64,000 bases of DNA from Escherichia coli (GTDB lineage Bacteria > Pseudomonadota > Gammaproteobacteria > Enterobacterales > Enterobacteriaceae): assembly GCF_013122565.1 (NCBI RefSeq), contig NZ_CP053258.1. One strand, written 5' to 3'. Positions 50,274 through 63,740 of the stretch are shown here, in pieces (positions within the stretch are counted from its first letter, which is position 1; every line of letters begins with the position of its first letter). The translations under genes and the position numbers were made by a program. The notes under the pieces are model-generated. The model had not been told where the DNA came from, did not search any database, and saw only the letters and a list, made by a program, of their open reading frames with translations.

Positions 50274-51932
<1,659 letters not shown>

Positions 51933-51938
51933 TGATGT

Positions 51939-51969
51939 GCCACATCCGGCATGGTATGCCGGATGTGGC
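51939..51969 (+). other. 14-bp perfect-stem hairpin immediately 3' of mqo
   Basis: gccacatccggcat-ggt-atgccggatgtggc. Confidence 0.6.
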
Positions 51970-51974
51970 GTATG

Positions 51975-52313
51975 CTGATAAGACGCGCCAGCGTCGCATC
52001 AGGCAACCGGCTTGGGTGTTAGATGTCGGATGCGGCGTAACCGACTTATTCGACCTACGGGGTGGAGCACTTCACAGCGGTGTAGGCCTGATAAGACGCG
52101 TCAGCGTCGCATCAGGCAACCGGCTCGGACGTTGGATGTCGGATGCGGCGTAACCGCCTTATCCGACCTACGGGGTGGAGCACTTCACAGCGGTGTAGGC
52201 CTGATAACACGCGTCAGCGTCGCATCAGGCAACCGGCTCGGGCGTTAGATGTCGGATGCGGCGTGACCGCTTTATCCAACCTACGGGGTGCCGCACTTCA
52301 CGGCAGTTTAGCG
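51975..52313. repeat. BIME array: three tandem ~113-bp REP-containing units
   Basis: Units start at 51975, 52088 and 52201; the third overlaps the eco stop codon. Confidence 0.8.
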
Positions 52314-52796
52314 AACTACTGCGTTGTCAATTTTCTCTTCCGCCTTCCAGACGCGGTACTTCACATCCACATTGTCTGGCGTATACACCACGATCGGCAG
52401 CTTGCTGTTGTAACGCAGCATTCCGGCATCGCCCAGATACGCGGTGACAAATTTCCTCTCTTTCTTGCCATCCGGGCAGGCCATCATCGTGGAAACCGGC
52501 GAGCTACCTTTATCAAAGACATAATAATCATAGCCCCAGCCTTCCAGCGTTTTGCTTTCCAGCTTCCCGCCGAGACGATGCAAATTACAATCGACTTCCA
52601 GCGTCTGACCGATTAACAGTTCTACTTTCAGGGTAGATTCATCTTCTTGCGGGGTTAACTGAATCACCTGACGCTTCATGCCTTTTTCAGCTTGTGGATA
52701 AGGCGCGATTTTTTCCAGTGGCTGGACGCTCTCTGCCGCCCAGGCGGAAGTGGTGGCGAAAGCGGCAAACAATACTGCAGGTAGAATGGTCTTCAT
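52308..52796 (-). CDS. eco: Ecotin, periplasmic serine-protease inhibitor
   Basis: 162 aa from ATG 52796 ([20 protein letters not shown] signal peptide). Confidence 0.92.
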
Positions 52797-53055
52797 TTTT
52801 TTGCTTTCCTTCTTCATTTATAGGTTTTCACCGATGATGTCGCTGAAGGTTAACATATTCATCAGATTTATTAATTTGCTTTATGAATAACTTAAAGAAT
52901 ATTCAGACAATTTTACCTGCTCTTTTAGTGTTAAATTCTGATGAGAGAACAAACCAGCAGAAATATCTCTGGTGAATTAATCGCTATATAAATATGTTTA
53001 TAACCATTAGAAATGTGAGCAAAAGCCCGTTTTTGCCACGCTTCCCGCCACTCTT

Positions 53056-53090
53056 TTGATCCTGCTACAGGTTTTACCCCGATCGGGGTA
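53056..53090 (+). promoter_or_regulatory. napF control region: FNR-like half-site plus perfect NarP/NarL 7-2-7 palindrome
   Basis: ttgatcctgctaca (53056-53069) and taccccgatcggggta (53075-53090), centres 20 bp apart. Confidence 0.6.
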
Positions 53091-53203
53091 TGCACCTTTG
53101 ACACAACCTTTTATATCTTAGCGGCCATAAAAATAGCTTATTAGTTGTGTGGTTTATTTGCTCGCTCTCAATTTTCAGAGCGCGTTAATGATGGAAGGTC
53201 AAT

Positions 53204-53698
53204 GTGAAGATTGATGCATCCCGTCGGGGCATACTCACTGGTCGCTGGCGCAAAGCCAGTAACGGTATCCGTCCGCCCTGGTCCGGTGATGAATCTCATT
53301 TTCTGACCCATTGCACCCGCTGCGACGCCTGTATTAATGCTTGTGAAAACAACATTCTGCAACGCGGCGCGGGTGGCTATCCGAGCGTTAATTTCAAAAA
53401 TAACGAGTGCAGCTTCTGTTACGCCTGCGCGCAGGCTTGCCCCGAATCGCTATTTTCTCCGCGCCACACCAGGGCCTGGGATTTGCAGTTCACCATTGGG
53501 GACGCGTGCCTGGCGTATCAGTCAGTTGAATGCCGCCGCTGTCAGGATAGCTGTGAGCCAATGGCAATTATCTTTCGCCCGACGCTCTCCGGGATCTACC
53601 AGCCGCAACTTAATAGCCAACTTTGCAACGGATGTGGAGCATGTGCAGCCAGCTGTCCGGTATCAGCCATAACTGCGGAGTATCTCCATGCACACTAA
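53204..53698 (+). CDS. napF: Ferredoxin-type protein NapF
   Basis: 164 aa; several Cys clusters; GTG start with GGAAGG SD. Confidence 0.9.
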   Translation: MKIDASRRGILTGRWRKASNGIRPPWSGDESHFLTHCTRCDACINACENNILQRGAGGYPSVNFKNNECSFCYACAQACPESLFSPRHTRAWDLQFTIGDACLAYQSVECRRCQDSCEPMAIIFRPTLSGIYQPQLNSQLCNGCGACAASCPVSAITAEYLHAH

Positions 53699-53951
53699 CT
53701 GGCAAGTTTGCAGCCTGGTCGTGCAGGCCAAAAGCGAACGAATTTCAGACATCAGCACCCAACTGAACGCCTTTCCCGGCTGTGAAGTTGCTGTCAGCGA
53801 CGCGCCAAGCGGTCAGTTGATTGTGGTGGTGGAAGCAGAAGACAGCGAAACGCTGATCCAAACCATTGAGTCAGTACGCAACGTAGAGGGCGTGCTGGCG
53901 GTGTCGCTGGTTTATCACCAGCAGGAAGAGCAAGGTGAGGAAACACCATGA
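53688..53951 (+). CDS. napD: NapA chaperone NapD
   Basis: 87 aa; overlaps napF and napA. Confidence 0.9.
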
Positions 53952-56434
53952 AACTCAGTCGTCGTAGCTTTATGAAAGCTAACGCCGTTGCGGCCGCTGC
54001 GGCGGCTGCCGGTCTCAGCGTGCCGGGCGTTGCCCGTGCCGTTGTTGGTCAGCAGGAAGCCATTAAATGGGATAAAGCGCCGTGCCGTTTCTGCGGTACT
54101 GGTTGCGGCGTTCTGGTCGGAACGCAGCAGGGGCGTGTGGTGGCCTGTCAGGGCGACCCGGATGCACCGGTTAACCGTGGCCTGAACTGCATTAAGGGCT
54201 ATTTCCTGCCCAAAATCATGTACGGTAAAGACCGTTTGACGCAGCCGCTGCTGCGTATGAAAAACGGTAAATATGACAAAGAGGGCGAATTTACCCCAAT
54301 CACCTGGGATCAAGCCTTCGATGTGATGGAAGAGAAATTCAAAACCGCCCTGAAAGAAAAAGGGCCGGAATCGATCGGTATGTTCGGTTCTGGTCAGTGG
54401 ACTATCTGGGAAGGTTATGCCGCGTCCAAGCTGTTCAAAGCGGGCTTCCGTTCGAACAACATCGACCCGAACGCGCGTCACTGTATGGCGTCGGCAGTAG
54501 TTGGCTTTATGCGTACCTTTGGTATGGATGAGCCGATGGGCTGCTATGACGACATCGAGCAGGCTGACGCGTTTGTGCTGTGGGGCGCAAACATGGCGGA
54601 GATGCACCCGATCCTCTGGTCGCGCATCACTAACCGTCGTCTTTCTAACCAGAACGTCACCGTGGCGGTGCTTTCTACCTACCAGCATCGTAGCTTCGAA
54701 CTGGCGGATAACGGCATCATCTTTACGCCACAGTCTGACCTGGTGATCCTGAACTACATCGCTAACTATATCATTCAAAACAATGCGATAAATCAGGACT
54801 TCTTCAGCAAACACGTTAACCTGCGTAAAGGTGCGACGGACATCGGCTACGGTTTACGTCCGACCCATCCGCTGGAAAAAGCAGCGAAGAATCCGGGTTC
54901 TGACGCCTCCGAACCGATGAGCTTTGAAGATTACAAAGCCTTCGTTGCTGAGTATACGCTGGAAAAAACCGCTGAAATGACCGGCGTGCCGAAAGACCAG
55001 TTAGAACAACTGGCGCAGCTGTACGCCGATCCGAACAAGAAAGTCATCTCCTACTGGACGATGGGCTTCAACCAGCACACGCGCGGCGTGTGGGCCAACA
55101 ACCTGGTCTACAACCTGCACCTGCTGACCGGCAAAATTTCCCAGCCGGGTTGCGGTCCGTTCTCCCTGACCGGGCAGCCTTCCGCGTGTGGTACTGCGCG
55201 TGAAGTGGGCACTTTTGCTCACCGTCTGCCTGCGGATATGGTGGTTACCAACGAAAAACACCGTGATATTTGCGAGAAGAAGTGGAATATCCCGAGCGGC
55301 ACCATTCCGGCGAAAATCGGTCTGCACGCGGTGGCACAAGACCGTGCGCTGAAAGACGGCAAACTGAATGTTTACTGGACCATGTGTACCAATAACATGC
55401 AGGCCGGACCGAACATTAATGAAGAGCGTATGCCGGGCTGGCGCGATCCGCGCAACTTTATCATCGTTTCCGATCCGTATCCGACAGTCAGTGCGCTGGC
55501 CGCCGACTTGATCCTGCCGACCGCAATGTGGGTAGAAAAAGAGGGTGCTTACGGTAACGCCGAACGCCGTACTCAGTTCTGGCGTCAGCAGGTACAGGCA
55601 CCGGGCGAAGCGAAATCGGATCTCTGGCAGTTAGTCCAGTTCTCCCGCCGCTTCAAAACCGAAGAAGTATGGCCGGAAGAGCTGCTGGCTAAGAAACCGG
55701 AACTGCGTGGCAAAACGCTGTACGAAGTTCTGTATGCCACCCCCGAAGTGAGCAAATTCCCGGTATCCGAACTGGCGGAAGATCAGCTGAACGATGAATC
55801 CCGCGAGCTGGGCTTCTATCTGCAAAAAGGGCTATTCGAAGAGTACGCATGGTTTGGTCGCGGTCACGGTCACGATCTGGCACCGTTCGATGACTACCAC
55901 AAAGCGCGCGGTCTGCGCTGGCCGGTGGTGAACGGTAAAGAAACGCAGTGGCGTTACAGCGAAGGTAACGACCCGTACGTGAAAGCGGGTGAAGGCTACA
56001 AGTTCTACGGTAAACCGGATGGCAAAGCGGTGATTTTCGCGCTGCCGTTCGAACCGGCGGCGGAAGCACCGGATGAAGAGTACGATCTGTGGCTCTCTAC
56101 CGGACGCGTTCTGGAGCACTGGCACACCGGCAGTATGACTCGCCGTGTGCCGGAACTGCACCGCGCCTTCCCGGAAGCGGTCCTGTTTATTCACCCGCTG
56201 GATGCGAAAGCGCGCGATCTACGCCGTGGCGACAAAGTGAAAGTGGTTTCTCGCCGTGGTGAAGTGATCTCGATTGTCGAAACGCGCGGTCGTAACCGTC
56301 CGCCGCAGGGCCTGGTGTACATGCCGTTCTTCGACGCCGCACAGCTGGTTAACAAACTGACGCTGGATGCGACCGATCCGCTCTCGAAAGAGACGGATTT
56401 CAAGAAGTGCGCGGTCAAACTGGAGAAGGTGTAA
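53948..56434 (+). CDS. napA: Periplasmic nitrate reductase catalytic subunit
   Basis: 828 aa; twin-arginine signal (SRRSFMK); N-terminal Cys cluster. Confidence 0.97.
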
Positions 56435-61324: not shown

Positions 61325-61800
61325 ATATTCGCCGTAAAAACCGCTTGTGGATTGCCTGTGCTGTGTTGGCAGGGCTGGCGCTGACTATCGGTCTGGTGCT
61401 GTATGCGCTGCGCTCGAATATCGATCTCTTTTATACGCCGGGGGAGATTCTCTACGGCAAGCGTGAAACTCAGCAGATGCCGGAAGTCGGTCAGCGTCTG
61501 CGCGTTGGCGGGATGGTGATGCCGGGTAGCGTGCAGCGCGATCCCAATTCGCTGAAAGTAACGTTCACCATTTACGATGCTGAAGGCTCAGTGGATGTCT
61601 CTTACGAAGGCATTTTGCCGGATCTGTTCCGTGAAGGGCAGGGCGTTGTGGTGCAGGGCGAGCTGGAAAAAGGCAATCATATCCTCGCGAAAGAAGTGCT
61701 GGCGAAACATGATGAAAACTACACGCCGCCAGAAGTTGAGAAAGCGATGGAAGCTAACCACCGTCGCCCGGCGAGTGTTTATAAGGACCCAGCATCATGA
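61321..61800 (+). CDS. ccmE: Haem chaperone CcmE
   Basis: 159 aa, N-terminal TM anchor. Confidence 0.92.
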
Positions 61801-63740
61801 TGCCGGAAATTGGTAACGGACTGCTGTGCCTGGCGCTGGGAATTGCGCTGCTGCTGTCCGTGTATCCGCTATGGGGCGTGGCGCGCGGAGATGCGCGCAT
61901 GATGGCGTCTTCCCGCTTGTTTGCCTGGCTGCTGTTTATGTCTGTAGCTGGCGCATTTCTGGTGCTGGTCAATGCTTTCGTGGTCAACGACTTTACCGTC
62001 ACCTATGTTGCCAGCAACTCCAATACCCAGCTTCCGGTGTGGTATCGCGTGGCGGCTACCTGGGGCGCGCATGAAGGCTCGCTACTGCTGTGGGTGCTGC
62101 TGATGAGCGGCTGGACCTTTGCGGTGGCGATTTTTAGTCAGCGTATTCCGCTGGATATTGTGGCCCGTGTACTGGCGATAATGGGGATGGTCAGCGTCGG
62201 CTTTTTGCTGTTCATTCTCTTTACCTCTAACCCGTTTTCACGCACGTTGCCGAACTTCCCGATTGAAGGGCGCGATCTTAACCCGCTGTTACAGGATCCG
62301 GGGCTGATCTTCCATCCGCCTCTGCTCTATATGGGGTACGTGGGTTTCTCGGTGGCGTTTGCTTTTGCCATTGCTTCTTTGCTGAGCGGGCGTCTGGACA
62401 GCACTTATGCGCGTTTTACTCGTCCGTGGACGCTGGCGGCGTGGATTTTCCTGACGCTCGGCATTGTGCTCGGTTCCGCATGGGCCTATTACGAACTCGG
62501 CTGGGGTGGCTGGTGGTTCTGGGATCCGGTAGAAAACGCCTCGTTTATGCCGTGGTTGGTGGGTACTGCGCTGATGCACTCACTGGCGGTCACTGAACAA
62601 CGCGCCAGCTTCAAAGCGTGGACATTACTGCTGGCAATCAGTGCCTTTTCGCTGTGTCTGTTGGGGACTTTCCTGGTGCGTTCCGGCGTGCTGGTATCGG
62701 TACACGCGTTTGCGTCTGATCCGGCGCGCGGTATGTTTATCCTCGCCTTTATGGTGCTGGTGATTGGCGGTTCGCTGCTGCTGTTTGCCGCGCGTGGACA
62801 CAAAGTTCGCTCACGCGTAAACAATGCGCTGTGGTCGCGGGAATCTTTGCTGTTAGCGAACAACGTTTTGCTGGTCGCCGCAATGCTGGTGGTGTTGCTG
62901 GGGACGCTGCTGCCGCTGGTGCACAAGCAACTGGGACTGGGCAGTATTTCGATTGGCGAACCGTTCTTCAACACCATGTTTACCTGGCTGATGGTGCCGT
63001 TTGCTCTACTGCTGGGTGTCGGTCCTCTGGTGCGCTGGGGGCGCGATCGCCCACGTAAAATCCGCAATTTATTGATTATCGCCTTCATCTCAACGCTGGT
63101 GCTGTCGCTGCTGCTGCCGTGGCTGTTCGAAAGCAAAGTTGTGGCGATGACGGTGCTCGGCCTGGCAATGGCCTGCTGGATTGCGGTGCTGGCAATTGCG
63201 GAAGCTGCGCTGCGTATTTCACGTGGCACGAAAACCACCTTCAGTTATTGGGGAATGGTGGCGGCTCACCTGGGGCTGGCAGTGACAATTGTTGGTATTG
63301 CCTTTAGCCAGAACTATAGCGTTGAGCGTGATGTGCGCATGAAGTCCGGCGATAGTGTCGATATTCATGAATATCGCTTCACCTTCCGTGATGTCAAAGA
63401 GGTGACTGGCCCGAACTGGCGTGGCGGTGTGGCGACTATCGGCGTAACGCGAGAGGGTAAACCAGAAACGGTGCTGTATGCGGAAAAACGTTATTACAAC
63501 ACTGCCGGGTCGATGATGACCGAAGCGGCGATTGACGGCGGCATCACGCGTGACCTGTACGCGGCCCTCGGTGAAGAGCTGGAAAACGGCGCGTGGGCCG
63601 TGCGTCTTTACTACAAACCGTTTGTTCGCTGGATTTGGGCGGGCGGGCTGATGATGGCGTTGGGCGGACTGCTGTGTCTGTTTGATCCTCGCTATCGTAA
63701 GCGCGTGAGCCCGCAAAAAACTGCGCCGGAGGCTGTATGA
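61797..63740 (+). CDS. ccmF: Cytochrome c haem lyase subunit CcmF
   Basis: 647 aa polytopic membrane protein. Confidence 0.93.

Follow-up and report, generated by a model that had tools for sequence, protein, structure and literature searches.

The eco-napF intergenic region of the window (the whole stretch of 64,000 nucleotides that was analysed) contains a site for the oxygen sensor FNR and a site for the nitrate regulators NarP and NarL, both of which are real, conserved and already part of textbook knowledge. Together they almost certainly form the upstream activating region of the promoter of napFDAGHBC, the operon for the periplasmic nitrate reductase, with FNR centred at -64.5 and NarP/NarL at -44.5. 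The reading is carried by the two sequences themselves, their identity with the corresponding sequences of Escherichia coli K-12, their conservation at a fixed spacing in three genera, and their agreement with the position of an FNR ChIP peak. The earlier note on this DNA, a reading of the raw sequence, had located a genuine and experimentally characterised regulatory module; it holds nothing new for nap regulation.

Architecture of the napF upstream region

The first gene of the regulated operon, napF (53204-53698, plus strand), has a GTG start, encodes 164 amino acids and is named after orthologues annotated as napF. It is followed on the plus strand by napD (53688-53951) and napA (53948-56434), and upstream lie mqo (50286-51932, plus strand) and eco (52308-52817, minus strand), these four genes being assigned from the list of open reading frames (ORFs) and the K-12 annotation. 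The spacer between mqo and eco (51932-52300) contains tandem repeats, in which overlapping ORFs give near-identical peptides (e.g. RRIRQPA..LDVGCGVT..LRGGALHSGVGLI), and it looks like a REP/BIME-type cluster. The length of this spacer varies by strain: approximately 375 bp in the window, 714 bp in K-12 and 148 bp in MFDS1006657.

NarL and NarP recognize the heptamer TACYYMT and FNR the consensus TTGAT-N4-ATCAA (PMC4886647); an inverted heptamer pair separated by a 2-bp gap constitutes a 7-2-7 site (PMC2718512, PMC10853779). The 7-2-7 element of the napF region, TACCCCGATCGGGGTA (equivalently taccccgatcggggta, the heptamers TACCCCG and CGGGGTA flanking AT), occupies positions 53075-53090 with its centre at 53082.5 and no strand assigned. 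It is a perfect 16-bp dyad of 8 + 8 nucleotides, unique in the window even when two mismatches are allowed, and it ends 114 bp upstream of the napF GTG start. The earlier note had presented it as a match to TACYYMT-N2-AKRRGTA; the arrangement is correct, whereas only 12 of the 14 specified positions agree, since each heptamer follows the consensus at six of seven positions and carries G/C rather than T/A at position 7. The FNR-like element TTGATCCTGCTACA (equivalently ttgatcctgctaca or TTGATcctgCTACA), likewise given no strand, occupies positions 53056-53069 with its centre at 53062.5, which leaves 20 bp between the two centres. It matches the FNR consensus at seven of ten positions. The left half TTGAT is perfect (5/5) and the right half agrees at two of five positions, as the note had recognized in calling the one good and the other weak. 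Its coordinates for both elements, the perfect palindrome and the 20-bp centre spacing proved exact to the base on reading the sequence. The characterised sites might have lain elsewhere in the intergenic region; however, the motif check found no other FNR-like match with up to three mismatches between -120 and -40, and the other NarL-type heptamers of the region are isolated and further upstream, none of them in the 7-2-7 arrangement. Each of the two elements also includes a GATC (Dam) motif, at 53058-53061 in the FNR half-site TTGATC and at 53081-53084 in the centre of the palindrome; the former is invariant across genera, whereas the latter varies.

When the palindrome centre at 53082.5 is equated with the published position -44.5, the transcription start falls at 53127 and the FNR-like site at -64.5. 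We infer that 53127 is the P1 start, 77 nt upstream of the napF GTG. The core promoter up to this start (53111-53127, plus strand) contains two overlapping -10 candidates, TTATAT (53111-53116), which reads TAATAT in K-12, and TATCTT (53114-53119). The segment ATATCTTA (53113-53120), invariant in nine aligned sequences, is likely the -10 region, and the hexamers are putative assignments. A sigma-70 and terminator scan of the napF upstream region found neither a consensus -35/-10 pair nor a terminator; the missing pair fits an activator-dependent promoter and is uninformative by itself there. The mapping studies (Darwin et al. 1998; Stewart et al. 2003) reportedly placed FNR at -64.5 and NarP/NarL at -44.5 in the napF region, counted from the major promoter P1, and are said to have found a weak second promoter, P2, with a start approximately 3 nt upstream.

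Two further blocks are located upstream of the FNR-like site. ModE is known to activate nap (PMC8139620), and a ModE-like operator, CGCTATATAaatatgTTTATAACC, is present at 52982-53005 (no strand assigned; centre 52993.5). No other stretch of the window fits CGNTATATA-N6-TATATANCG within three mismatches (0.07 matches expected); the operator itself has two and is conserved in Escherichia and Citrobacter in the nine-sequence alignment. A start at 53127 puts this operator at exactly -133.5, the reported position of the napF ModE site, which provides an independent check on the start site. The CRP-like site TGTGAgcaaaaGCCCG (53014-53029, no strand assigned, centre -105.5) is good only in its left half, TGTGA; the block GAAATGTGAGCAAAAGC, which contains this half-site, is 87-90% conserved across Escherichia and Citrobacter. 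Its position is consistent with the CRP site that Stewart et al. 2009 reportedly described upstream of the napF FNR site. The predicted positions of the FNR (-64.5), NarP/NarL (-44.5) and ModE-like (-133.5) sites match the architecture reported for this promoter.

Conservation and published regulation

Sequence statistics alone place neither the FNR-like element nor the palindrome above chance. The window contains two perfect 16-bp palindromes against approximately one expected per 64 kb, two matches to the 7-2-7 consensus with up to two mismatches against 2.55 expected, and 340 FNR-like matches with up to three mismatches against 232 expected, i.e. 5.3 per kb. The composite pattern TTGAT-N14-TAC-N10-GTA occurs once against 0.02 expected, for a pattern that was defined after the site had been seen. 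Since the consensus-based significance of the FNR, 7-2-7 and palindrome matches is compatible with chance, sequence statistics were dropped as the main argument, and the case rests on homology, conservation and published experiments. The lesson for the method is that a palindrome and a half-site that are at chance level in such a window justify a call only through homology, conservation and published binding data. The window has just one further perfect 16-bp palindrome, GATATTCATGAATATC at 63360-63375, inside an ORF of 647 amino acids (61797-63740).

The orthologous locus is the control region of the K-12 napF (aeg-46.5) operon (Choe & Reznikoff 1993; Darwin & Stewart 1995; Darwin et al. 1998; Stewart et al. 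2003). Of 5,426 complete E. coli genomes, 5,421 contain the eco-napF intergenic region. When this region is aligned pairwise with that of K-12 MG1655, the comparison that the earlier note had proposed, the FNR-like site, the palindrome and the sequence between them are the same base for base, and the ModE-like and CRP-like blocks are identical or nearly so. A scan of species-representative genomes with NapF identified at least seven true orthologous loci (one in E. coli, one in E. albertii, four in Citrobacter and one in Leclercia); no orthologous napF locus of Salmonella or Klebsiella was among the matches listed, generic ferredoxin motifs being matched as well. The 272 bp upstream of napF from these seven loci, the window and K-12 were aligned for phylogenetic footprinting, giving nine sequences from three genera.

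A conserved block without gaps, beginning at the FNR-like site and taking in the palindrome as far as the -10 region, is shared by Escherichia, Citrobacter and Leclercia, with column identities of 0.81-0.96 versus 0.4-0.7 in the flanks and less constrained stretches. Within it, TTGATC and the right-half C, A and C of the FNR-like site are invariant and free of indels, and the spacing between the FNR-like site and the palindrome is 20 bp in every aligned sequence. Variation of the palindrome is confined to its inner positions. At its centre, other genera have AATT, GATT or CATT instead of GATC but retain the TAC/GTA ends and the C/G tracts, and three Citrobacter sequences share the symmetric variant CCCCAATTGGGG, a double change that preserves the dyad. 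All ten enterobacterial napF loci carry a single copy of the degenerate 7-2-7 motif TACCYCNATNGGGGTA upstream of the gene, and none of 15 unrelated loci has it.

Published work on K-12 places the napF 7-2-7 site at -40 to -49, i.e. centred at -44.5 (PMC4549865), and napF is one of four genes with a reported site of this type, the only type bound by NarP (PMC2718512). Binding of phospho-NarP and phospho-NarL has been reported for the identical K-12 sequence (PMC9262595, PMC2718512). Induction of napF depends on FNR and phospho-NarP, phospho-NarL competes for the same site and blocks NarP binding, and a fragment from -85 to +19 is sufficient for regulated expression (PMC9262595). Control of napF by FNR and NarP across the gamma-proteobacteria has also been predicted by comparative genomics (PMC1805755, Table 1).

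For FNR, Myers et al. 2013 listed a K-12 ChIP peak 'napF/yojO' at 2301669 in older K-12 coordinates, which two of four peak callers detected (PMC3688515). Its matrix score (ln p = -5.37) is one of the lowest in their table of bound sites, in agreement with the weak right half of the FNR-like element. The coordinates were converted by using the peak 'within proL' at 2284296 as an anchor: proL lies at 2286211-2286287 in NC_000913.3, which gives an offset of 1915-1991 bp. By this anchor the K-12 peak maps to 53041-53117 of the window, directly over both sites. The statement of the earlier note that napF is activated by FNR and modulated by NarP and NarL is thus borne out by the identity with K-12, the published experiments (PMC4549865, PMC2718512, PMC9262595) and the ChIP peak.

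The mechanism predicted for this strain takes the binding events, the transcription start and the competition between NarP and NarL from the literature. In anaerobiosis, an FNR dimer would occupy the imperfect site at 53056-53069, centred at -64.5. When nitrate is low or nitrite is present, a phospho-NarP dimer would bind the 7-2-7 palindrome at 53075-53090, which is centred at -44.5 and abuts the -35 region. The two activators would jointly recruit RNA polymerase to a promoter that appears to have no usable -35 hexamer, and transcription would start at approximately 53127. At high nitrate, phospho-NarL would bind the same palindrome, displacing NarP and activating poorly, so that nap expression would be expected to peak at low nitrate.

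The napF promoter shares its components with other nitrate-responsive promoters and differs from them in their arrangement. The same TACYYMT heptamers in 7-2-7 organization are found at the nirB, nrfA, yeaR and ogt promoters (PMC2718512, PMC10853779, PMC4886647), and those of yeaR and ogt, whose centres are at -43.5 and -44.5, are positioned similarly to that of napF, although NarL activates these two promoters without FNR (PMC10853779). At nirB and nrfA, FNR occupies the class II position -41.5 and NarL/NarP bind further upstream. The napF order is the reverse, NarP being the nearer to the start (-44.5) and FNR the farther away (-64.5), which is unusual among FNR/Nar promoters; relative to the predicted start, FNR also departs from -61.5, where it usually sits at class I promoters (PMC4886647). 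The napF control region of Haemophilus influenzae Rd has the same pair of regulators upstream of its nap operon. According to Stewart & Bledsoe 2005, its sites are reportedly at -81.5 and -42.5, so that their spacing would differ from the 20 bp observed here, and NarL is said to activate there as well as NarP.

Alternative readings of the two elements

The palindrome could bind NarP and NarL while TTGATcctgCTACA is a chance half-site and FNR acts elsewhere, for example at TTGCTCGCTCTCAA (53158-53171, centred at +38.5). We consider this very improbable. The match at seven of ten positions, a level that is reached 5 times per kb by chance, and the better match at +38.5 do count against our own reading. 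In favour of the alternative, FNR-like matches with three mismatches are common, the published matrix score for the napF locus is weak, and the +38.5 element has two mismatches to the FNR consensus against three for the element at -64.5. However, conservation of the +38.5 element does not extend to Citrobacter or Leclercia, whereas TTGATC at -64.5 never varies and keeps its spacing, and FNR bound downstream of the start would cause repression, not activation. The interval 53041-53117 to which the ChIP peak maps leaves out 53158-53171, and the -85 to +19 fusion, which is devoid of the +38.5 element, is still regulated (PMC9262595). In the napF leader, TTGCTCGCTCTCAA overlaps an imperfect inverted repeat at 53156-53189 (16-nt arms, 75% complementary).

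The other two alternatives concern the nature of the conserved block and of the dyad, and we give each of them next to no credence. The block could reflect coding constraint on yojO, a small gene on the opposite strand, rather than binding of regulatory proteins: yojO is annotated across both sites in K-12 and most E. coli genomes, its N-terminus is encoded by the palindrome and the FNR site, and the equivalent ORF of the window (52931-53095, minus strand) overlaps the NarP/NarL, FNR, CRP-like and ModE-like sites. Stop codons, though, interrupt the yojO frame in E. albertii, in all four Citrobacter, in Leclercia and in another lineage of E. coli, where the DNA blocks are still conserved; the start codon varies (ATG in K-12, GTG in the window), and conservation tracks the dyad symmetry instead of codon positions. 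Thus, yojO is probably not a conserved protein-coding gene. A purely structural or accidental palindrome (a hairpin, a terminator or a CGATCG site of PvuI/Dam type) with no role in the response to nitrate would be compatible with the number of such palindromes in the window, two where approximately one is expected, and with GATC at the centre. Yet the scan detected nothing resembling a terminator, neither strand has a T-run after the palindrome, the centre is replaced in other genera while the ends and C/G tracts stay, and the sequence is exactly that of the K-12 site characterised by experiment. Conservation of a Dam/PvuI site as such was rejected as an explanation, since the central GATC varies across genera. 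The inverted-repeat finder returned the imperfect repeat of the 5' untranslated region (5' UTR); the 8-nt arms of the palindrome are below its minimum length.

Divergence of the core promoter and leader

The napF control region differs from K-12 by 13 substitutions in 272 bp, nine of which cluster in approximately 70 bp of core promoter and 5' UTR at 53095-53161. Only this segment is unusually divergent: identity with ordinary E. coli is 98.6% over the surrounding 8 kb, the intergenic region reaches 96.9% with its best match in any complete genome, and the bin 53100-53199 contains eight differences versus 0-2 in the adjacent bins. Five of the nine substitutions (at -21, -15, +18, +24 and +35) affect positions that are invariant in all eight other aligned sequences. 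Over 53091-53203, identity does not exceed 92% in 5,419 of the 5,421 complete E. coli genomes, the two near-matches being MFDS1006657 (99.1%) and 24A16CRGN010 (96.5%). The window therefore looks like a recombinant in which activator sites of K-12 type give way, shortly after the palindrome, to a rare allele of the core promoter and leader.

With nine positions of the core promoter and leader changed, the quantitative behaviour of the promoter may differ from that of K-12. The change at -15 (TAATAT to TTATAT) is inside the upstream of the two overlapping -10 candidates, so the patch could shift the balance between the overlapping napF promoters. Either such a shift or an altered post-transcriptional control through the leader is a tentative suggestion drawn from the sequence, and on balance we regard it as rather unlikely; if true, the rare patch would represent a natural promoter-swap variant of nap regulation. 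Minor leads for the population genomics of E. coli and for cleaning up its annotation are the rare allele and the lack of conservation of yojO. In MFDS1006657, the upstream half of the intergenic region is much more divergent and the palindrome is intact.
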